Source: Planctomycetota bacterium
GTDB taxonomy: Bacteria > Planctomycetota > DG-23 > JAZDKG01
Direction: 5' to 3'
NCBI GenBank assembly: GCA_043803205.1
Contig: JAZDKG010000073.1
Coordinates: 2,129 to 66,128 of the forward strand
DNA: 64,000 nucleotides
How positions within the stretch are numbered: the first letter of the stretch is position 1; every line of letters starts with the position of its first letter. This document shows positions 7,872 to 64,000 of the stretch, piece after piece. Below the pieces are notes generated by a model, which saw only the letters and a program-made list of their open reading frames with translations, was not told where the DNA came from and ran no database searches. The position numbers and the translations under genes were made by a program.

Positions 7872-7942
7872 CCCCTTCGTCCCGCAGTCGCGGGATCGGC
7901 GCAGGCCCTTCGACGAGGCTCAGGGCAGGCGCTTCGGGCGGG
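7872..7942. repeat. Intergenic copy of a short hairpin-containing repeat family
   Basis: ccccttcgtcccgcagtcgcgggatcggcgcaggcccttcgacgaggctcagggcagg resembles the coding repeats at 1385-1477 and 1607-1639 and the gtcccgcagtcgcgggac hairpin inside the MITE-like element at 19437-19454. Confidence 0.6.
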
Positions 7943-7969
7943 AAAGATGGGAAGGAAAGGAGGGAGGCG

Positions 7970-15534: not shown

Positions 15535-17304
<1,770 letters not shown>

Positions 17305-17647: not shown

Positions 17648-17659
17648 GAGGTGTGGACG

Positions 17660-19270
17660 ATGGCCAAGCAGCTCATGTATTCCGACGAGGCCCGTCGGAA
17701 GGTCCAGGCGGGGATCCGTCGTCTCGCCGACGCGGTGCGGGTGACGCTCGGGCCGACCGGGATGAACGTGATCATCGAGAAGAGCTTCGGTGGTCCGATG
17801 GTGACGAAGGACGGGGTGACGGTCTCGAAGGAGGTGGAGCTGGACGATCCCTTCGAGAACATGGGGGCGAAGATGGTGAACGAGGTGGCGACGAAGACCT
17901 CGAACGTCGCCGGAGACGGGACCACAACCGCGACCATCCTCGCCGAGGCGATCTACAACGAGGGGCTCAAGAACGTCACCGCGGGCGCCAACCCCATGGA
18001 GGTGAAGCGCGGGATCGAGCTAGCGGTCCAGACGGTGACGGAGGAGCTTGCGAAGCTGTCGCGCGCGGTGAAGCGCAAGGAAGAGATCGCGCAGGTGGCG
18101 ACCATCAGCGCGAACAGCGACACGGTGATCGGGAACTTGCTTGCCGACGCGATGGACAAGGTGGGCAAGGACGGCGTGATCACGGTCGAAGAGGGGAAGG
18201 CCGTGGAGACCACCCTCGATGTGGTGGACGGCCTGCGGTTCGACAAGGGATACATCTCGCCCTACTTCGTGACGGTGCCGGAGAAGATGGAGGCGACGCT
18301 CGAGAAGGCGTACATCCTCATCCATGAGAAGAAGATCTCCAACGTTCGGGAGCTCCTGCCGTTGCTGGAGAAGGTGGCGCAGAGCGGGAGGCCGCTCCTC
18401 ATCATCGCGGAGGAGGTCGAGGGCGAGGCGCTGGCGACACTCGTGGTGAACAAGCTGCGGGGGGTGCTCGTGACGTGCGCGGTGAAGGCGCCCGGCTTCG
18501 GGGACCGCCGCAAAGCGATGCTCCAGGACATCGCCATCATGACGGGCGGCGAGGTCGTCAGCGAGGATCTCGGCGTCAAGCTCGAGAACATCTCCATGGA
18601 CGTGCTCGGGTCGGCCGAGGCGATCACGGTGGACAAGGACAACACGACGATCGTGAAGGGGGGCGGGAAGAAGCAGGCGGTCCAAGACCGCATCGCGCAG
18701 ATCAAGAATCAGATCGAGCAGACGACGAGCGACTACGATCGCGAGAAGCTCCAGGAGCGCTTGGCGAAGCTCTCCGGCGGGGTGGCGATCCTCTCTGTCG
18801 GGGCGAACACCGAGGCGGAGATGAAGCAGAAGAAGGGCAGGGTGGAGGACGCGCTCCATGCGACCCGGGCGGCGGCCGAGGAAGGGATCGTGCCCGGGGG
18901 CGGGATCGCGCTCCTGCGGACCTGCGCGGCGCTGGACGCCGCGCGCAAGAAGGCCCGCGGGGACGAGAAGATCGGCGTGGACATCATCGCGCGGGCGATC
19001 CAGGAGCCGTTGCGGCAGATCGCGCGGAACTCGGGCGCGGACGGCCCCGTGATCCTGGCCCAGGCCCTCAAGAAACCCACGAACGTCGGCTTCGACGCGA
19101 CGACGGGGGAGTTCGTGGACATGTTCAAGGCCGGGATCGTCGATCCGACGAAGGTGGTGCGGACGGCGCTTCAGAACGCGGCCTCCGTGGCGGGGCTGAT
19201 GCTGACGACGGAGACGCTGGTCACGGAACTCAAGGAAGAGGAAGAGGAGGTCGCCGGGAGCATCGCGTAA
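17660..19270 (+). CDS. groEL: Chaperonin GroEL (copy 2, lacks GGM tail)
   Basis: A full-length 536-aa GroEL ([26 protein letters not shown]). The C-terminus is acidic ([12 protein letters not shown]) rather than GGM repeats. RBS aggaggtg. Confidence 0.95.
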
Positions 19271-19398
19271 GCTTGCGCCGGCGCGCCCGCGCTTGAGGGA
19301 GCTTCCCTCCGGCGCTACAATCAGGCGCACGGCGGATTGTCGGTGTTCGCGACGGCGGGCCGAGGAGTTCGACCCGCCGTCGCGCTTCCTCGAGGATA

Positions 19399-19688
19399 AG
19401 AGCCTATCCGAATACCAGGGCCGTGTGCGCCGCGAGGTCCCGCAGTCGCGGGACGAGCAGGACAAGGAGCGAGGAGGCAGCCGTGTCAAAGGATAGACAC
19501 GACGACGACGAGCGACGCAGGCATGCGATGCAACCGCCCGCGGCCCGGAGGGTTGGGGCGGCGAGAGGTCGTCTGCGGCGTTGCAACTCCTCAGCGTATC
19601 TCTCCTCTGATACACCTGCGTCGTCGCGCCTTGCATCCGACCTCTCGGCGCTCCCAACGCGCGCGACCCTGGTATTCAGATAGGCTCT
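19399..19688. mobile_element. MITE-like element copy A (non-coding, bounded by ~25-bp terminal inverted repeats)
   Basis: Left end agagcctatccgaataccaggg. The right end, reverse-complemented, is agagcctatctgaataccaggg. An internal core gcatgcgatgcaaccgcccgcggcccggagggttggggcggcgaga is shared with copy B. It contains the gtcccgcagtcgcgggac hairpin at 19437-19454. It lies between the groEL2 stop and the dnaJ start. Confidence 0.6.
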
Positions 19689-19713
19689 AAGGTCCGGTCG
19701 CGGGATGGCCTGG

Positions 19714-33551: not shown

Positions 33552-34898
33552 TCACTTGCTCAGACGAAGGACGGCATTGCGGTGATCGATCTTCGGATAG
33601 TACGTGTCGAACTCGAACTTGGGGCTGTTCTCCGGGTCGTGGCAGGTGCGGCACTTCGATTCGTCGGGACGGGAGTAGGGGGCCAGCACGTTACGGAGGT
33701 GCCGGCTCCCGGGGCCGTGACACGCCTCGCACGCGACGTTCGCCAGATCAGGCGTGAGGGCGCGACTGCGGAAGCCTCCCTCATTCTCGAGACCGACGGT
33801 GTGACAGACGACGCACTCGGGATCCCGGTCGGCGCCTTCTTTCTCGAGGGAGGCCAGCGCCTCCTCATGTTTCACCGTGCGCCACTTGCGGAACTGCGGG
33901 AGGTGACAGCGGGCGCAGCCGCTCAAGCCCAGGTAGCGACGGTCCCCGATCGCCATCCGGGGAAAGCGATCGATCAGCCCCTCCTCCGAGACCTGGAGAC
34001 GGTAGTCGGCGAGAAGCTCCGCGACGGACTTGTCCTCCGGCATGTCCCCGGAGAGGAACGTCGGGGTGTAGCGCGTGCCGAGGACCGCCCCCGAGGGATC
34101 GAAGTCCACGTCGAGGCGCGCGACCCATTTCCCATAGAGACCGGTTCCCACGACGGCGGTCGCGCCGACCTTCTCCTCGGCCTCGGGGGGTTTCTCCTCG
34201 AGGTAGCCTCTCGCGGCGACGTCGATCCCCGGGGCCTCGCGCGCGATGCGCTTCGCCTCTTCGGCGCCGGCGTGGCAGAGGAGCACGACGAGGTCGGCGC
34301 GGGGACGCAGTTCCGCGACGAGTTCGCGCGCCGTCGCCACAGGGTCCAAGAGCTCCAGGTCGGGCGCCATGCTGGAGAGTTCGATGCGGAAGGCTTCCCC
34401 CAGGATGGCGAACACGGCCACGCGCCGGCCGCTCGGTAGCTCGATCACGATCGAGCGCTCGAAGGGAAAGCCGCCGTCCCGGCGCCTTGCGTTCGACAGG
34501 ATCAGGGGGACGGGGGAGCCGACGGCCTGGGCGTTGAGGGTGGACAAACCCAGGGCGAAGTCCCGGAAGCCCACGGCGCAGGCGTTGTATCCCATCTCGC
34601 CGAGGGCCAGGAGCGTGTACTCGTACTTGATCTCCTGCTGACGGCCCCCCTCCAGGACGAGTCCCCCGTTGTCGAGGAGGACGATCTCCCCGCCCGTGTT
34701 CCGGCGCAGTTCTCGCACGAAGGTCGAGCGACGGGGGAGGCCGCCCACCATGTCCTCCGTGCACCCGCAGGGGGCGAGGCGCCCCATCTGTTCGCCCGTG
34801 AAAAGGATCGTGAGGCGGGAGGGCTCATCCGCCGCGAGGGTTGCGACGCTCGAGACGAGGAGCACCAGATAAAGGACCAGAGGGCGGGCGCGCTTCAA
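33552..34898 (-). CDS. Fusion protein: N-terminal degenerate 5'-nucleotidase/metallophosphatase-like domain plus C-terminal tetraheme c-type cytochrome domain
   Basis: A TTG start at 34898 follows the RBS gggaggg and gives the signal peptide (M)KRARPLVLYLVLLVSSVATLAA. The N-terminal ~300 aa resembles the 5'-nucleotidase family (LLDNGGLVLEGG, VLLCHAGAEEAKRIAREAPGIDVA) but lacks the GNHE and GGH metal ligands. The C-terminal ~130 aa carries four CxxCH motifs (CARCH, CVVCH, CEACH, CRTCH). The upstream part of the track ORF is high-GC artefact overlapping the DUF1573 gene. Confidence 0.65.
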   Translation of the reverse strand: MKRARPLVLYLVLLVSSVATLAADEPSRLTILFTGEQMGRLAPCGCTEDMVGGLPRRSTFVRELRRNTGGEIVLLDNGGLVLEGGRQQEIKYEYTLLALGEMGYNACAVGFRDFALGLSTLNAQAVGSPVPLILSNARRRDGGFPFERSIVIELPSGRRVAVFAILGEAFRIELSSMAPDLELLDPVATARELVAELRPRADLVVLLCHAGAEEAKRIAREAPGIDVAARGYLEEKPPEAEEKVGATAVVGTGLYGKWVARLDVDFDPSGAVLGTRYTPTFLSGDMPEDKSVAELLADYRLQVSEEGLIDRFPRMAIGDRRYLGLSGCARCHLPQFRKWRTVKHEEALASLEKEGADRDPECVVCHTVGLENEGGFRSRALTPDLANVACEACHGPGSRHLRNVLAPYSRPDESKCRTCHDPENSPKFEFDTYYPKIDHRNAVLRLSK

Positions 34899-43409: not shown

Positions 43410-44387
43410 CTACTCCCCTGTCCACAGAAGCCGCACGTGCGCGCGCTTCTCGAGCTCGCTAAGGTACCTGTCCCTTCGCTCGTTGAACTTTTTCTCGAAG
43501 AGTTTCTCGTAGATCCCCTTCTGCGCTTCCTCGAAGGGGATGATCCCCTCCGGCGTGGTCTCCAGCACCTTCACGAGGTGGCAGCCGATGGAGGATTCGA
43601 TGACGTCGGAGAGCTCGCTCGCCGAAAGGGCGAAGATGCGGTCATCGACCTCTTTGCGGAAGGTCCCTGGGGTGACGTTCTCCCAGACGCCGCCGTCCTG
43701 CGCGTGCGGGCAGCTCGAGTGCATTCGCGCCAACTCCCGCATGTCCGCGCCGCCCTCGATCTCGCGGCGAAGCTCCCGGGCGAAGGCCAGCGCCTGCTCC
43801 TTCCCCCCCTGGCGCTCGGGGGTGATGAGGATGTGGATCATCTTCGCTGCGCGCGGGCGCCTGAACTCGGCGCCGTTCACCTCGTAGTAGCGCAGGAGCT
43901 CCTCCGGGGAGACGGCGACGCGGCTGTAGACGTGTTCGTTGAGAAGGGCGCCGATCAGGATCTCCGTGCGGTATTGCTCGCGCTGATCGTCAAGCGTCTT
44001 TCCCTCACGGGCGAGGGTTTCCCGCAGGGCGGTCATGGACCCGGCCCCGGCGATGTCGTCGCGCAGGCGTCTCCGGACGCGCTCGTCGATCTGATCCGAG
44101 ATCTGTTTCGTGACGAGGCGCTCGGCCTCCTGACGAAGCAGGATCTCGTTCTTCCGGTAGGCCAGCCTCTTGAAGAGAAGGAGGGAGATCCTCTTCTCGA
44201 GCTCATCCCCAACGTAGTTTGCCCGGAGCTCCTGGATCGCCGGCCCGAGGCCTTTGACGAGCTCCGAGTACGTAATGACGACCCCGTTCACCTCCGCGAC
44301 CACCATGCTGGCAGGTCTCTCCTGGGCGGACAGGGGCCGCGCCAGGAGCGCTGATACCGCCAGTATGACGGCGACGAGCCGCGTCAT
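43410..44387 (-). CDS. Peptidyl-prolyl cis-trans isomerase, SurA/PpiC (parvulin) family
   Basis: Signal peptide MTRLVAVILAVSALLARPLSAQE. A SurA-like N-terminal chaperone domain. Parvulin rotamase signature (HILITPE...SSCPHAQDGGVWENVTPGTF...GCHLVKV). Confidence 0.8.
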   Translation of the reverse strand: MTRLVAVILAVSALLARPLSAQERPASMVVAEVNGVVITYSELVKGLGPAIQELRANYVGDELEKRISLLLFKRLAYRKNEILLRQEAERLVTKQISDQIDERVRRRLRDDIAGAGSMTALRETLAREGKTLDDQREQYRTEILIGALLNEHVYSRVAVSPEELLRYYEVNGAEFRRPRAAKMIHILITPERQGGKEQALAFARELRREIEGGADMRELARMHSSCPHAQDGGVWENVTPGTFRKEVDDRIFALSASELSDVIESSIGCHLVKVLETTPEGIIPFEEAQKGIYEKLFEKKFNERRDRYLSELEKRAHVRLLWTGE

Positions 44388-47300
44388 CGTGGTCCTGTTC
44401 CTTCTGGTCCGAAGCCGCGCGTCCCGGAAGACTGCATTCTAGAGCATCCGCCGGCGCTGGCAAGCGCGCGGTGCGCGAATTCCAAGAGCGCGTTTCCGTC
44501 GCGGCGGGCGTCCTCGTCGAGGGGGGTGACGACCGTCCTTTCGTCGACGACTCGAGCGACGACCCCGCCCGCCCGCAACGCCCCCGCCAGCATCTCGGGG
44601 TCGCGGCATTGGAAGCGCAGCATCCCGTCCGCCCGCATGCAGGTCCGCACGCCCCAGCGGGCGGCGCGAATGCGCACCCGGTGTTTCATGACGAGGCGTT
44701 CCACCTCCGCGGGCGGCTGTCCGAAGCGGTCGCGGATCTCCTGTTCGAGCGCGTCGAGGTCCTCGAGCGTCGAAGCGGTTGCCAGCCTCCGGTAGATCTC
44801 CATTCGGAGGCGGTCCGCCGGGATGTAGCTCGCCGTGATGTAGGCGTCCGCCCCGAGGTCCACCGTCACCTCCGCGGTCTCGGGGACCCCGCCGCCGGTG
44901 GGGTCGCGCAGACGGGCCACCGCCCCTTCGAGGAGCCTGCAGTAGAGCTCATATCCGACCGCCGCGATGTGCCCCGACTGCTCGGGGCCCAGCAGGTTCC
45001 CCGCGCCGCGGATCTCGAGGTCCCGCATGGCGATCTTGAACCCGGCCCCCAGTTCACTGTGGTCCGCGATCGCGCGCAGGCGCTTGGCGGCGTCGGGGGT
45101 GACGGGACGGTTCTCGGGGAGCAGCATGTAGGCGTACGCGCGGTGCTTGTAGCGTCCCACGCGGCCGCGGAGCTGATGGAGCTCCGCGAGCCCGAACATG
45201 TCTGCCCGGTCGATGAAGAGCGTGTTGGCTGTCGGGATGTCCAAGCCGTTCTCGATGATCGTCGTCGCCACCAGGACGTCCGCCTCCCGGTTGAGGAAGC
45301 GCATCATGTGTTCCTCGAGGTCGTCCTCGTGCATCTGTCCGTGGGCGACGATGAAGCGCGCCTCCGGGACGATTCCCGCCAGCTCCCTTGCCCTCGCGTC
45401 GATCGTCCGCACGCGGTTGTGCACGAAGAACACCTGGCCGCCCCGCGCGAGCTCCCGAAGCACGGCCTGTCGCACGCGACTTCGGTCGAAGCGGCAGACG
45501 ATCGTCTCGATTGAGAGCCTGTCCTGCGGGGCCGTCGAGAGGGTGGAGATGTCCTTGATGCCGGCGAGCGCTAGGTGCAGCGTCCTGGGGATCGGCGTCG
45601 CGGTGAGGGTGAGGCAGTCCACCATCGTCTCGTCGCGCTTCAGGATCTCCTTGTGTCGGACGCCGAACCGCTGCTCCTCGTCCACGATCACCAGGCCCAA
45701 CGACGCGAAGCCGACGTCCTGCTGAAGGAGCCGGTGCGTGCCGATCACGATGTCGACGCGTCCTTCCGCCAGTCCCGCCAGGATCTCGCGCTCTTGGGCC
45801 GTCGAGCGGAAGCGATCCAGCGCCCGCACTTCAACGGGGTAGTCGGCCAGCCTCTCGAGGAAGGTGCGGACGTGCTGTTCGACGAGGAGGGTCGTGGGCG
45901 CGAGCACGGCCACCTGCTTCCCCGCCTGGGCCGCCTTGAACGCCGCCCGCACCGCGAGCTCGGTCTTGCCGTATCCCACGTCGCCGCAGACCAGGCGGTC
46001 CATCGGGTGGGGAGACTGCATGTCCGTCTTGATCGCCGCCAGCGCATTGAGCTGGTCGGGCGTCTCCTCGTAGAGGAAGGCGGCCTCGAACTCGCGCTGC
46101 CAGTCGGCGTCGGGCGGGTAGGTGATACCGGGGAGCACCGCGCGCCGGGCCTGGACTTCGAGAAGCTCCGCGGCGAGGTCCTTGGCGGCGGCCTCCACCT
46201 GGGCTTTGCGCGCGAGCCACGCCTTGCCCTGAAGCTTCGAGAGAGGGGGCCGTCGCTTCCACCCTCCGACGTACTTGTGCACGAGGTCGATCTGCGAGGC
46301 GCTCACGTAAACGCGGGCGTTATCCGCGAATCGCAGGACGAGGAATTCCTCCTTGCCGCGCGGACCCTCCATGACCTTGAGCCCCTCGTAGATCGCGATC
46401 CCCTTCGTCGTGTGCACCACGGGCTCGCCCGCCGAAAGGTCCAGAAACGAGTCGATGGGCCTCGCCTCGACCGGCCGCCGGGGCTCATAGCGCCGACGGT
46501 ACCGGTGAAACATCTCGTGATGGGCGATCACGGCGAACGCCGGCTCGCGGCTGACGAAGCCCCGGGAGATTCGTCCCAAGACGTGACGGAGCGTGGCGGG
46601 CTCACCTCGTCCGGGCTCGGCGAGAAGCTCGACGAGCCTCCTGCGCTCCCCGACGTTGTTGGCGAAGAGGAAGACCGCGGGGAGCTCGCCGGCGCGGCGG
46701 ACGAGCTCCCGGACCGCCTCGCCGGCGTCGCGCGGAAAATCCTCGACGGCCGCGAAGTCGAAGTCGAAGCTGCGTCCCTCCTCGAAGCGCTCGCGGAAGG
46801 TGCTGAGATAGACCCTGGAGTCGATCCCGGCGCCCTGCGCGTGCAGGATGGTCTCCACGCGGTAGAGTCCACGGGCCTCGCGCACCGTGTCGAGATAGCG
46901 CCTGCCGTGCTCCTCGACCGATGCGGGCTCGACGACGGCGACGGCGCTTCCGGGGGGAAGGAGGCTGGTGAACGGAACGGTCCGAGCGCTTTCCGGCGCG
47001 CGGCCTCCGGAGCCGGAGAGGACGCAGCCCTCGGTCTCGTCTCGGCTCTCCTGCGTCTCCGGATCAAAGAGGCGGATCGACGCGACCTCGTCGCCGAGGA
47101 ACTCGATCCGGTAAGGCTCGCGGGAGGTCGCCGGAAAGACGTCCAGGATCCCGCCCCGGCTAGCGTAGCTCCCGGGGGACTCGGCCACGTCCTCCCGGTC
47201 GAAGGAGTTTTCGGTGAGCCAGGCGGCGACGTCCTCCCTGGGAAGACGTCCGCCCCGTCGCACCACGAGATCGCGTTCCGCCAAGGTCGTCGGATCGCAG

Positions 47301-47707
47301 GCGCCCTGGATGAGCGCGGCGACGCTCGCCACGACGATTGCGCCTGCGGCGAGCTCTCCCCGGCGCAGTCCGTCGACCACCATGAGGCGGTCTCGGACGA
47401 GGTCGTCCACGACGGTGCCTTCCTCCCCCGGAAGCGACTCGAGCTGGGGGTAGAGCTCCACGCGCCCGCCGGCTAAGAGCGCGAGGTCCGAGTGGAGGTC
47501 CTCGGCGGTGTCGAGGTCCGAGGCGACGACGAGGAAGATGCCCCGCGTGCGCTCCGCCAATGAGGCGAGAGCGAGCGCCTGCGACGCCCCCCACAGGCCC
47601 GACAGGTACAGATTCCCTCCGGCTCCAAACGCGTCGAGGGCCCCCTTCGCCGCGCGCGTTTGCAGGAAAAGATCGCGCAACTGGCGCACCGGGCGAGCGC
47701 CGTTCAT
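44384..47707 (-). CDS. mfd: Transcription-repair coupling factor
   Basis: A 1107-aa protein with a UvrB-homology N-terminal domain, an RNAP-interacting domain, DEAD/DEAH helicase motifs (GDVGYGKTE, VVDEEQRFG), and the TRCF C-terminal domain. The stop overlaps the surA-like gene start. Confidence 0.95.
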   Translation of the reverse strand: MNGARPVRQLRDLFLQTRAAKGALDAFGAGGNLYLSGLWGASQALALASLAERTRGIFLVVASDLDTAEDLHSDLALLAGGRVELYPQLESLPGEEGTVVDDLVRDRLMVVDGLRRGELAAGAIVVASVAALIQGACDPTTLAERDLVVRRGGRLPREDVAAWLTENSFDREDVAESPGSYASRGGILDVFPATSREPYRIEFLGDEVASIRLFDPETQESRDETEGCVLSGSGGRAPESARTVPFTSLLPPGSAVAVVEPASVEEHGRRYLDTVREARGLYRVETILHAQGAGIDSRVYLSTFRERFEEGRSFDFDFAAVEDFPRDAGEAVRELVRRAGELPAVFLFANNVGERRRLVELLAEPGRGEPATLRHVLGRISRGFVSREPAFAVIAHHEMFHRYRRRYEPRRPVEARPIDSFLDLSAGEPVVHTTKGIAIYEGLKVMEGPRGKEEFLVLRFADNARVYVSASQIDLVHKYVGGWKRRPPLSKLQGKAWLARKAQVEAAAKDLAAELLEVQARRAVLPGITYPPDADWQREFEAAFLYEETPDQLNALAAIKTDMQSPHPMDRLVCGDVGYGKTELAVRAAFKAAQAGKQVAVLAPTTLLVEQHVRTFLERLADYPVEVRALDRFRSTAQEREILAGLAEGRVDIVIGTHRLLQQDVGFASLGLVIVDEEQRFGVRHKEILKRDETMVDCLTLTATPIPRTLHLALAGIKDISTLSTAPQDRLSIETIVCRFDRSRVRQAVLRELARGGQVFFVHNRVRTIDARARELAGIVPEARFIVAHGQMHEDDLEEHMMRFLNREADVLVATTIIENGLDIPTANTLFIDRADMFGLAELHQLRGRVGRYKHRAYAYMLLPENRPVTPDAAKRLRAIADHSELGAGFKIAMRDLEIRGAGNLLGPEQSGHIAAVGYELYCRLLEGAVARLRDPTGGGVPETAEVTVDLGADAYITASYIPADRLRMEIYRRLATASTLEDLDALEQEIRDRFGQPPAEVERLVMKHRVRIRAARWGVRTCMRADGMLRFQCRDPEMLAGALRAGGVVARVVDERTVVTPLDEDARRDGNALLEFAHRALASAGGCSRMQSSGTRGFGPEGTGPR

Positions 47708-47733
47708 GAAACCGCCTCACAAGACTCCGGCCA

Positions 47734-48009
47734 AGAGCCTGTCCGAATAACGGGGTCGCGCGTTGGGAGCGCCGAGAGGTCGCATGCAAGGCGCGACGAC
47801 GAAGGCGTATCAAGGGGACGATACGTCGAGGAGGAGCAACGCAGCAGGCGGCATCTCGCCGCCCCAACCCTCCGGGCCGCGGGTGGTTGCATCGCATGCC
47901 TGCGTCGCTCGTCGTTGACGTGTCGCTGCGGACACGCCTGCCTCCTCGCTCCTTGGCCTGCTCGCAAGCACCTCGCGGCGCGCGCGGCCCCGTTATTCGG
48001 ATAGGCTCT
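47734..48009. mobile_element. MITE-like element copy B (inverted relative to copy A)
   Basis: Ends agagcctgtccgaataacgggg and, reverse-complemented, agagcctatccgaataacgggg. The internal core gcatgcgatgcaaccacccgcggcccggagggttggggcggcgaga (reverse complement of 47862-47906) is ~95% identical to copy A. It lies in the divergent gap between the mfd start and the DUF502 gene promoter. Confidence 0.6.
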
Positions 48010-48117
48010 GACTCCCCGATTGACGCGACTCGATTATACCGCCCTCGGCCCGCGCTCCCAATCCCTTCCAACGAGGAGCTTGCGGGAGGGGGAAGGCGCC
48101 GACTCGCCGCGCCGGCC

Positions 48118-48146
48118 TTGACGGGCTCAGCAGTCTCCAGTAGGAT
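48118..48146 (+). promoter_or_regulatory. Candidate promoter TTGACG-N17-TAGGAT upstream of the DUF502 gene
   Basis: ttgacg 48118-48123, a 17-nt spacer, then taggat 48141-48146. It is 25 nt upstream of ATG 48171 and immediately downstream of MITE copy B. Confidence 0.35.
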
Positions 48147-48170: not shown

Positions 48171-48842
48171 ATGAATCGTCCCGGCGAGTCTGGAAAGTCT
48201 TTCTTCACCCGGTTTCGCGGAAGCGTCCGAAACCGGATTGTCGCGGGACTCCTGATCTTCATCCCGATCGTCGTCACGTATCTGCTGCTCAAGCTCCTGT
48301 ACACGGTGTCGGCAGGGCTCTTTACGCCCCTCGTGCGGTTTCTTGCCCCCTCCCAGCCCAAGGTGGTGCTCGCGCTCATCTCGCTGTTTCTCCTGGCTGC
48401 CATCCTGTACCTCGCCGGGTTGATCGCCGCGCACCTCGTTGGCCGACGGGTCATCGCTTGGGGAGAATCGCTAGTCGCCCGCATCCCGCTCGTCAAGACG
48501 ATCTACTCCTCCGTGAAGCAGGCGGTGGATGCGATCTCGTCCTCCAACCGGATCGCTTTCAAGAAGGTCGTGCTCGTGCAGTACCCCCGCCTGGGAATCC
48601 GCGCCCTCGGATTCGTCAGCCGCATTACGCAAGATCGGGAAGGGAAGATCTTCTATTTGATCTTCGTCCCGACCTCTCCCAATCCGACGACTGGCTTCCT
48701 CCAGATCGTGCCCTGCGACGAGGTCGAAGAAACGTCCATCTCGGTCGAGGAGGCCGTCCAGACCATCGTGTCGGGGGGGATCATCGCCGCGGACATCCTG
48801 AACGCCGCCCCGTCCGTTCCCAGAGACGCGGCGAACCTCTGA
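48171..48842 (+). CDS. DUF502 domain membrane protein
   Basis: Two N-terminal TM helices plus a conserved DUF502 core (IPLVKTIYSSVKQ, VLVQYPRLGIRALGFV). Confidence 0.75.
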   Translation: MNRPGESGKSFFTRFRGSVRNRIVAGLLIFIPIVVTYLLLKLLYTVSAGLFTPLVRFLAPSQPKVVLALISLFLLAAILYLAGLIAAHLVGRRVIAWGESLVARIPLVKTIYSSVKQAVDAISSSNRIAFKKVVLVQYPRLGIRALGFVSRITQDREGKIFYLIFVPTSPNPTTGFLQIVPCDEVEETSISVEEAVQTIVSGGIIAADILNAAPSVPRDAANL

Positions 48843-62779: not shown

Positions 62780-63071
62780 GGGCCACCTCCGGTGAGGAAA
62801 AACGGGCACGACTCGCAACCATTATAAGCGCCCGGCGTCGAGGAGGGGAGAAGAACTTTACCCCGCCGCGTCGGCGCCCAGCGCCCCAAGGGGCTCTAAC
62901 AGAACCAGGTGCGAGTCGCGTTGCGAGCGCGACGGCGTCGGATGCAAGGCGCGACGAGGAGGCATATCAAGAGAAGGATATGGCGACGAGGAGTAACACA
63001 GCAGCCGACGCTGTCCCGCCGCAACCCGAAGGGACGCGCGCAGTTCCACCTCATCTTGTGCTTCCTCCTTC

Positions 63072-64000
63072 TCAAAGCGTCGCGGCCGTGCCTGGTTCTG
63101 CTAGAGCCCCTAAGAGAGAGGCCACCTCGAAGAGCGCGCGCGGAAGATGGAAGCACCCCTTCCAGCGGTTCCCCTTGCAGCGGTTGTTGACCTCCCCGCG
63201 ACGATTGAGATACCCGAACCACTCGCCGAACTCGCCGTCGGGATACCGCTTCCAGGCGTAATCGTGGACCCTGCCGAACCATCGCAGCAGGACCTCCTCT
63301 CCGGTGAGACGATAGCCCAAGAGGAGCGCAATGAGGGTCTCAAGATGAGCCCACCACAGCTTCATGTCCCACTGGAGTTCGATGTGCGGACGTCCGTCGA
63401 CGTCCATGAAGTAGAAGATCCCTTCGTGCTCCGCGTCCCAGCCGAATTCCAGGAGGGAGAGCGTCACCTCGCAGGCGCGCTGGATTGTGCGTCGATCCCC
63501 TGTCCGCTCGGCGGCGCGCATGATGAACCACATCGCTTCGATCCCGTGTCCGGGCGTCACCTGCCTGCCGAGGAGCGTATCGGGATGCTCCCCCCCGGGA
63601 CCCGCGTTCTCAAAAACGATGTTCCGCGAGCCGTCCAGGAAGTCCGACATGATCTCCCGCATGGAGGACTCGATGAGCGCGTCGAAGCGGGACTCCGGAC
63701 GGATCCGCGAAAGCACGAGCCCCAGACACACGTCCATCATGGGAAGCGCGAGGTTCCTCATCTTCGGCGCCGCCGGAAGACGCTTGTTGTATCGTCCCTT
63801 CGGGTCGGCCTTGCGCGCCTGGATCCGCTCGAACGTCCGCCGGGAGATCTCCATCGCCTCCTCGTCCCCCGCCGCTAAGCCGTACTCGGCAAACCCCATC
63901 GCGGCGAAGTAGTCCGAGAAGATGTTATAGGCCGCGACGATGGGGCGGCCTTCGCGGTTAAGCGCGAAATACCAGTCCCCGTTCTCGTCCCGTCCGTGTT
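63072..64000 (-). CDS. N-acylglucosamine 2-epimerase (AGE) superfamily protein, 5' portion beyond window end
   Basis: (alpha/alpha)6-barrel AGE-family blocks (WWAHLETLIALLLGY, FGEWFGYLNRRGEV). The reading frame continues in frame through position 64000, so the N-terminus lies outside the window. Confidence 0.75.
   Translation of the reverse strand, partial: HGRDENGDWYFALNREGRPIVAAYNIFSDYFAAMGFAEYGLAAGDEEAMEISRRTFERIQARKADPKGRYNKRLPAAPKMRNLALPMMDVCLGLVLSRIRPESRFDALIESSMREIMSDFLDGSRNIVFENAGPGGEHPDTLLGRQVTPGHGIEAMWFIMRAAERTGDRRTIQRACEVTLSLLEFGWDAEHEGIFYFMDVDGRPHIELQWDMKLWWAHLETLIALLLGYRLTGEEVLLRWFGRVHDYAWKRYPDGEFGEWFGYLNRRGEVNNRCKGNRWKGCFHLPRALFEVASLLGALAEPGTAATL

Follow-up and report, generated by a model that had tools for sequence, protein, structure and literature searches.

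Copy B, which lies between mfd and the gene for a DUF502 membrane protein, is quite probably a non-autonomous cut-and-paste DNA transposon (MITE) inserted in the mfd leader and belonging to a family that shares a constant module in a hairpin, H1. The constant part of this family is the H1 hairpin and not the transposon ends. We analysed copy B within a 64-kb stretch of DNA, here called the window, from a Planctomycetota MAG; the closest relative that the protein collection offered was only 45% identical. Copy B, its parts and its neighbours have the following positions and strands in the window:

44384–47707, minus: mfd (transcription-repair coupling factor; Pfam TRCF, UvrB_inter, CarD_TRCF_RID, DEAD, Helicase_C)
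47735–48008, plus (orientation of the primary module): MITE copy B, long form, 274 nt, ends GAGCC...GGCTC
47735–47762, plus: left TIR of copy B (GAGCCTGTCCGAATAACGGGGTCGCGCG)
47762–47871, plus: hairpin unit H1, bearer of the primary module (covariance model R1, 86.4 bits, E 1e-24)
47784–47847, plus: primary conserved module, consisting of ATGCAAGGCGCGACGA, a variable hairpin and then GAGGAGGAGCAACGCAGCAG
about 47873–47982, minus: hairpin unit H2, with the secondary module as its core
47900–47955, minus: secondary, diverged and inverted module (CAAGGAGCGAGGAGGC-hairpin-CAACGACGAGCGACGCAG; R1, 33.8 bits, E 2e-8)
47981–48008, minus: right TIR of copy B
48061 to 48033, minus: promoter-like site TTGGGA-17-TATAAT, directed toward mfd through copy B (10/12 matches)
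48118–48146, plus: promoter-like site TTGACG-17-TAGGAT, 5' of the DUF502 gene (9/12 matches)
48171–48842, plus: DUF502 membrane protein gene (Pfam PF04367; product 100% identical to a Planctomycetota MAG protein)

Copy B and its relatives as mobile elements

The TIRs of copy B pair positions 47734–47762 with 47981–48009 and are 93% complementary over 29 nt. The window contains the TIR word CCGTTATTCGGA at just two places (versus 0.24 expected occurrences), and both are the ends of copy B. The flanking triplets, CAA (47732–47734) on the left and TGA (48009–48011) on the right, represent a degenerate target duplication. Folding of the whole element gave z values of -8.8 and -7.9 on its two strands. 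Scanning the 64-kb window with covariance model R1 revealed three MITE copies, the other two being:

19400–19687, primary module on minus: MITE copy A, 288 nt, with a perfect TAA/TAA duplication at 19397–19399 and 19688–19690
62890–63110, plus: MITE copy C, 221 nt, of a different TIR subfamily (GGGGCTCTAACAGAACCAGG), with the primary module only (R1, 71.4 bits)

An earlier note had described 47734–48009 as a MITE-like element inverted relative to copy A, and the TIRs, the opposite orientation and the alignment of the two copies bear this out. Copies A and B are 88.5% identical at aligned positions, with blocks of 168, 40 and 34 nt that match at 89%, 90% and 94%, respectively. The same note had them share a core of ~50 nt. 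This string is indeed present in both, but the alignment spans nearly their whole length, and the proposed core corresponds to the part in which these two close copies have diverged least; the segment of copy B that is conserved family-wide is 47784–47847 instead. The note was also right that the two copies differ by indels (20 gap positions) and that copy A carries an extra hairpin (GTCCCGCAGTCGCGGGAC, 19437–19454). This hairpin is one member of a separate small repeat family, which recurs at 1613, 7879 and 2096, and is therefore a nested insertion in copy A.

That second repeat family combines a small hairpin, (C)GTCCCGCAGTCGCGGGA, often with CCCTTC 5' of it, with 24-nt periodic units (GGCCCTTCGACAAGGCTCAGGGCAGG). 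The hairpin resembles CGTC-tagged REPs (PMC3733652). Its positions in the window are:

1613–1630, 7879–7896 and 19437–19454, plus, and 2096–2113, minus: copies of the second repeat family, one of them nested in copy A
1397–1502, 1742–1830, 1969–2029 and 7893–7953: further stretches of the second repeat family

Copy C is more distant from copies A and B than these are from each other and is flanked by CAA and TAA. Both of its neighbours are on the minus strand: a GlcNAc-2-epimerase-like ORF, with the stop facing copy C, and a rubrerythrin-like gene, with the start facing it. The epimerase-like ORF (63072–63899, minus) runs ~40 nt into the right end of copy C and has its stop codon there, and copy C appears to supply its last codons and its stop. 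A further, weak match of the H1 model at 34405–34516 (minus; 11.5 bits, E 0.17), which contains ACGCAAGGCGC, is probably due to chance or a very decayed copy.

Relatives of these elements in other loci measure 130–320 nt and form two classes of about 150–170 nt and about 260–290 nt; short and long forms coexist under the same TIRs (loci L059 and L099). None contains a long ORF. Their non-coding nature is also seen in the indels between copies A and B, which are not multiples of three, and in the module length, which varies from 54 to 64 nt between copies. In 86 relatives at least 16 of the 20 terminal bases match. At least 14 relatives with GG- or GAG-type ends are flanked by a perfect 3-bp TNA duplication, the middle base of which varies yet matches on both sides (TGA/TGA in L109, TCA/TCA in L013, TTA or TAA in others), and other subfamilies are flanked by TA or CTAG. 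In the metagenome scan, several loci held two copies and many matches lay at contig ends.

Insertion polymorphism was found in the TACTGAG subfamily, whose host is Candidatus Omnitrophota. Three clean pairs of filled and empty sites, drawn from related Omnitrophota genomes, were identified in homologous cell-division (dcw) operons:

ftsI-murE junction: filled in L125, empty in L126
ftsW-murG junction: filled in L127, empty in L125
murG-peptidase junction: filled in L129, empty in L133

A fourth dcw copy follows murF in L054. At the two junctions that were read base by base, the TA of the empty site was seen on the readable sides of the filled site; at ftsI-murE the left TA copy now reads CA, and at ftsW-murG the contig ends before the right side. 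In some insertions the TIR supplies the stop codon of the upstream gene, as for murF in L054, ftsI in L125 and the epimerase-like ORF at copy C. Two further observations were made at murF. Between murF and mraY in L127 (3240–3255), TACTGAGGCAT equals the first 11 bases of the Omnitrophota TIR and stands there without an element; the corresponding junction of L125 is clean, and the remnant looks like the scar of a lost element. In L054 (4833–5120), the element comes after murF, and in the place expected for mraY a gene starting MISAIVVAAGKSKRF comes next; either the DNA was rearranged at the element or the metagenome assembly is chimeric at the repeat.

The small size, the TIRs, the target duplications, the multiple copies and the insertion polymorphism together make these elements MITEs, and the sole missing feature is an autonomous parent. 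No such parent with matching TIRs was detected in 124 loci and the window, in plasmids or in viral contigs. Likewise, TIR words did not occur outside module-bearing elements in these loci. BLAST searches of plasmids with copy B and with a 2975-nt concatenate of 14 subfamily representatives returned no match, nor did scans of viral contigs for the module and for the TIR. We also clustered 1132 flanking ORFs all-against-all in search of a gene that travels with the elements; this recovered generic families only (ABC transporters, sigma-54 activators, kinases and GGDEF/EAL proteins).

The enzyme that moves copy B in trans is presumably a DDE transposase with a TA-centred target, here TNA, that it duplicates. 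IS1031/IS427-type elements of the IS5 family, like PIF/Harbinger transposons with their Tourist MITEs, generate a 3-bp T-N-A (TWA) duplication and have TIRs starting with GAG or GG. In the present family the elements with a 3-bp TNA duplication also have ends that start with GAG or GG, a combination that we take to fit the IS5 family of the IS1031/IS427 type and treat as a lead. For the relatives with TA or CTAG we assume that an IS630-type transposase is a possibility. Both suggested assignments are derived from ends and duplications.

The left end of copy B is 27 nt from the ATG of mfd and its right end 163 nt from the start of the DUF502 gene, and judged by distance and polarity in the sequence it is mfd to which copy B relates. 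The divergent region of mfd and the DUF502 gene contains two promoter-like sites (versus 0.1 expected), both of them consensus matches only, in a phylum with poorly known promoters. One is TTGACG-N17-TAGGAT, which the earlier note had placed 109 nt past the end of copy B as a candidate promoter of the DUF502 gene; as a consensus match, it was recovered there. The other, absent from that note, is the minus-strand site 24 nt from the right end of copy B. It is the stronger of the two (10/12 versus 9/12 matches), and as seen from copy B the DUF502 candidate lies on its far side. No promoter-like site was found inside copies A, B or C. Copy A is flanked by groEL and dnaJ, with the dnaJ ATG at 19705, and has a promoter-like site of its own in front:

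19293–19321, plus: promoter-like site TTGAGG-17-TACAAT, 5' of copy A and dnaJ

Copies A and B are thus situated downstream of promoter-like sites that point at dnaJ and mfd and are therefore leader insertions, if the sites are real. Relative to dnaJ and mfd both present H2 in sense and H1 in antisense orientation, as do the operon insertions. Copy B would have inserted in the mfd leader, between the promoter-like site and the start codon. It most likely shares a transcript with mfd, and this RNA would probably form a fold-back structure.

We also observed in the window two adjacent chaperonin genes (15544–17304 and 17651–19270), 2023 nt apart and with 71–78% DNA identity over several blocks. 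The second is Cpn60 according to Pfam, and the first is likely to be Cpn60 as well, given its similarity to the second.

The conserved module and its hairpin

A purine-rich module of ~62 nt (AUGCAAGGCGCGACGA-hairpin-GAGGAGCAACGCNGCAG) caps the ~110-nt hairpin H1, which in copy B is predicted to fold as a single irregular hairpin. All three window copies contain the exact 16-mer ATGCAAGGCGCGACGA, which was also found in 3 genome loci and at least 120 metagenome loci. The genome scan used this 16-mer plus a short downstream word as its query; the metagenome sample was chosen by a pattern that fixes 24 module positions, and those columns are conserved partly by construction. Elements were found in Planctomycetota, Omnitrophota, a Verrucomicrobiia MAG and an Eisenbacteria MAG, that is, in at least four phylum-level groups with host G+C contents from 37% to 75%. 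The Verrucomicrobiia and Eisenbacteria elements, which came from the genome scan, have unrelated TIRs. Another genome-scan match, in a SAR202 MAG (L001), is located within a coding region and was discarded as chance.

Wherever enough flank was available, the element was small and bounded by TIRs, with the module ~52 nt from one of its ends. Defining subfamilies by a flank identity below 70% gave at least 26, and across 26 subfamilies the flanks are 33–39% identical while the module is nearly invariant. Module positions 70–80, which the search pattern did not set, are 75% identical, and within them GAGGAGC reaches ~0.8–0.9 per column. Furthermore, the module is intact in the three copies that were reached via MurE protein homology alone (L125, L127 and L129).

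The stem that closes the module and the inner stem-loop behave differently: their sequence changes fully between subfamilies, yet pairing is kept. Paired cells amounted to 91.8%, compared to 73% in shuffles and 17–45% in slid controls, and the covariation score was 0.454 versus 0.144, a value that none of the 500 shuffles reached. For the conserved strands GACGACGA and GAGGAGGAG the prediction is a helix in which tandem G.A pairs recur with single C-G pairs in between, capped by the covarying stem-loop; at one of these C-G pairs there is covariation with G-C.

Low-scoring H1-like hairpins were found in L044 (5757–5862, minus; 32 bits) and L056 (5122–5228, plus; 26 bits). They carry substitutions in the otherwise invariant strands, for example TTGCAAGGCGTAACGACG, and may be decaying copies.

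Several candidate identities of the module were rejected. A coding function did not fit, with the ATG-led frame broken by length variation, and neither did a sigma-70 or sigma-54 promoter, the hexamers of which fall in variable positions or match poorly. The spacing does not suit a kink-turn. Resemblances to SRP RNA, to 16S rRNA and to a rolling-circle nick site are short and not conserved across members. Searches of Rfam gave no family for the window at gathering thresholds and nothing relevant for copy B at E up to 10 or for eight relatives at E up to 1; the only weak matches were plant and animal microRNA precursor hairpins and CRISPR repeats (E > 0.01). A literature search for the core sequence strings returned unrelated primer matches only.

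Orientation, gene boundaries and possible roles of the module

Covariance model R1 detected one high-scoring unit per element; long forms also gave a second unit, located on the other strand and scoring about half as high. The consensus of this second unit, ACAAGGARCGAGGA-hairpin-AAGGACGAGYGACGCAG, is common to the Omnitrophota and window subfamilies and has the same predicted fold. Since long forms carry H2 in inverted orientation, either DNA strand presents one purine-rich module hairpin. The two strands are not equivalent, however. H1 is more stable in sense than in antisense by a mean of 5.3 kcal/mol, with this direction in 93 of 104 copies, and G.T mismatches outnumber A.C mismatches in the TIRs (107 versus 42) as well as in the closing stem (54 versus 22). 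In H2 the architecture is alike and the strand bias weaker.

This asymmetry is accompanied by an orientation bias relative to genes. Between co-directional genes, long forms had the primary module in antisense 19 times and in sense twice (two-sided binomial p about 2e-4, calculated by hand, ignoring relatedness and from a long-form census that the Omnitrophota subfamily dominates). The majority polarity is also that of all four dcw insertions and of each of the three window copies. The primary module is strongly disfavoured in sense orientation inside operons. The bias says that the element interacts in some way with transcription or translation. The module-sense strand, which folds better, is nevertheless usually antisense to the genes, and a simple role at the mRNA level does not explain this.

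What the module does can be proposed tentatively. It is kept while the TIRs and the length of the duplication change, and no gene travels along, from which we infer that it is not the binding site of the transposase. Instead, the module may be a cis-acting signal that is read in single-stranded form by something the hosts share, a hypothetical host factor. In sense RNA the module might be bound, processed or otherwise disruptive, and perhaps only insertions placing the milder H2 in the mRNA persist. We regard this role, a single-strand cis signal whose sense form is not tolerated in operons, as conceivable rather than likely. Similarly tentative is the broader proposal that H1 with its tandem-G.A module represents a novel class of functional structured nucleic-acid motif that decides whether insertions are tolerated in operons and leaders. 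Such a motif might act as an RNA bound by proteins or ribosomes, as a self-processing RNA or as an ssDNA signal, and different transposon ends would have carried it through Planctomycetota, Omnitrophota, Verrucomicrobiota and Eisenbacteria.

A different reading turns the relation around: H1 would itself function as RNA, for instance as a small RNA, a protein sponge or a self-cleaving ribozyme, made from the module-sense strand and merely spread by the transposon. We consider this improbable. It would account for the extreme conservation of the internal-loop sequence next to covarying helices and for the better fold of the module-sense strand, and a cleaved or tightly bound sense RNA is expected to be avoided in operons, as observed. 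Catalytic and protein-binding RNAs, moreover, commonly have a tandem G.A architecture. However, Rfam, which includes all known small ribozymes, gave no match, and no promoter-like or terminator-like signal was found in the copies. In addition, concerted evolution of palindrome arms can mimic covariation; it would explain the covariation of the stems, but not the invariant asymmetric loops.

The strand asymmetry also recalls transposition through ssDNA hairpins of the REPIN or IS200/IS605 kind, in which an HUH tyrosine transposase (RAYT/TIRYT) would recognise the module and the orientation bias would follow the direction of replication. Genes of the RAYT-like type flanked by long TIRs, together with matching repeat families, have been described (PMC3733652). 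The strand-specific fold, the excess of G.T over A.C that extends even to the TIRs, the two inverted units reminiscent of REP doublets and the strong orientation bias are all in line with such a process. Yet true duplications are present, TNA with a variable middle base and TA at the filled sites. Duplications of the TNA or TA type are the signature of staggered double-strand cuts and not of HUH transposition. Neither a tyrosine transposase nor any other shared gene is enriched beside the elements, and, provided that the flanking genes run with replication, the strand that folds better would be on the leading-strand template, the reverse of the IS200/IS605 rule. This makes ssDNA transposition very unlikely, and a staggered-cut DDE transposase acting in trans remains our preferred explanation of how the elements move.

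A preference for promoter regions had been proposed in the earlier note on the basis of copies A and B, and it was not supported. Our census covered about 55 elements with 102 ends, set against crude longest-ORF gene calls. Gene starts were faced by 43 of the 102 ends (42%) and gene stops by 59 (58%); right ends faced a stop codon, often only a few bases away, in 42 of 54 cases, and left ends a start in 31 of 48. Copies A and B, for their part, lie downstream of promoter-like sites, and the target is a short, TA-centred word. It is true that all three window copies are at most ~110 nt from a gene start and that copy B occupies a divergent region with two promoter-like sites, as expected if the elements prefer promoter regions or act as promoter-proximal regulatory modules, with copy B affecting the DUF502 promoter. 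But besides the minority of ends at gene starts, short forms are found mainly between convergent genes, directly at stop codons, and the four dcw insertions hit junctions at which the genes of relatives are 0–7 nt apart or overlap, with no room for a promoter. Copies A, B and C contain no promoter-like site themselves, and another such site separates copy B from the DUF502 candidate 109 nt away. We therefore give a promoter-directed preference or function little credence. The location at gene boundaries probably reflects the fact that TA-rich words occur mostly there in a genome of 66% G+C, combined with selection against insertions that break genes.

Finally, that the conserved module is an artefact of the search pattern or of recent horizontal spread, with no function, is the least credible reading: 24 positions were fixed by the pattern and the sample is phylogenetically unbalanced, but unfixed positions are 75–90% conserved against 33–39% in the flanks, the host G+C spans 37–75%, TIRs and duplication lengths differ between the subfamilies, copies found without the pattern keep the module, and the hairpin between the fixed strands changes wholly yet stays paired.

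Comparison with known systems

Bacterial MITEs such as Correia/NEMIS of Neisseria, ERIC, RUP and Chunjie of Geobacter resemble the present elements in being small, non-coding, TIR-bounded, multicopy and intergenic, and also in folding as RNA and residing in leaders and operon junctions. Those known MITEs form long hairpins and are transcribed together with adjacent genes. Correia elements share the TA duplication as well. Chunjie is reported to reside within an operon that it leaves unbroken (PMC10969869; PMC3733652). In contrast to this common architecture, we found no sequence similarity to Correia/NEMIS, ERIC, RUP or Chunjie in literature strings or plasmids. The likeness to IS5 elements (IS1031/IS427) has its limits too, in that no transposase gene with the present ends was found and some subfamilies duplicate TA or CTAG.

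REP/REPIN-RAYT and TIR-TIRYT systems are alike in consisting of hairpin repeats, with inverted doublets that can fold into a larger hairpin, and they likewise occur between co-directional or convergent genes and in PVC bacteria (PMC3733652). REPs, however, are tagged with GTAG or CGTC, measure 20–40 nt and do not duplicate their target, whereas the elements described here measure 150–290 nt, have TIRs of 25–30 nt and true duplications, and no associated tyrosine transposase was found. RNA families of Rfam 15 show comparable conserved internal loops flanked by covarying helices, but none reaches threshold. Taken together, this superfamily extends across at least four phylum-level groups and had no match in Rfam, in plasmids, in viral contigs or in the literature searched.

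These elements explain recurrent broken contigs and spurious ORFs in metagenome assemblies of the phyla concerned. Should the module prove to bind a host factor or to process RNA, it would constitute a new motif class and a natural marker for poorly studied phyla. The orientation bias and the insertions in the essential dcw operon link selection to the tolerance of insertions in transcribed DNA.

MITEs are usually defined by their ends, while their interiors drift. In the family to which copy B belongs the interior is constant: the ends and the length of the duplication change, and the structured internal module of ~62 nt is kept nearly base for base across several phyla, which implies selection on the element beyond recognition by a transposase.
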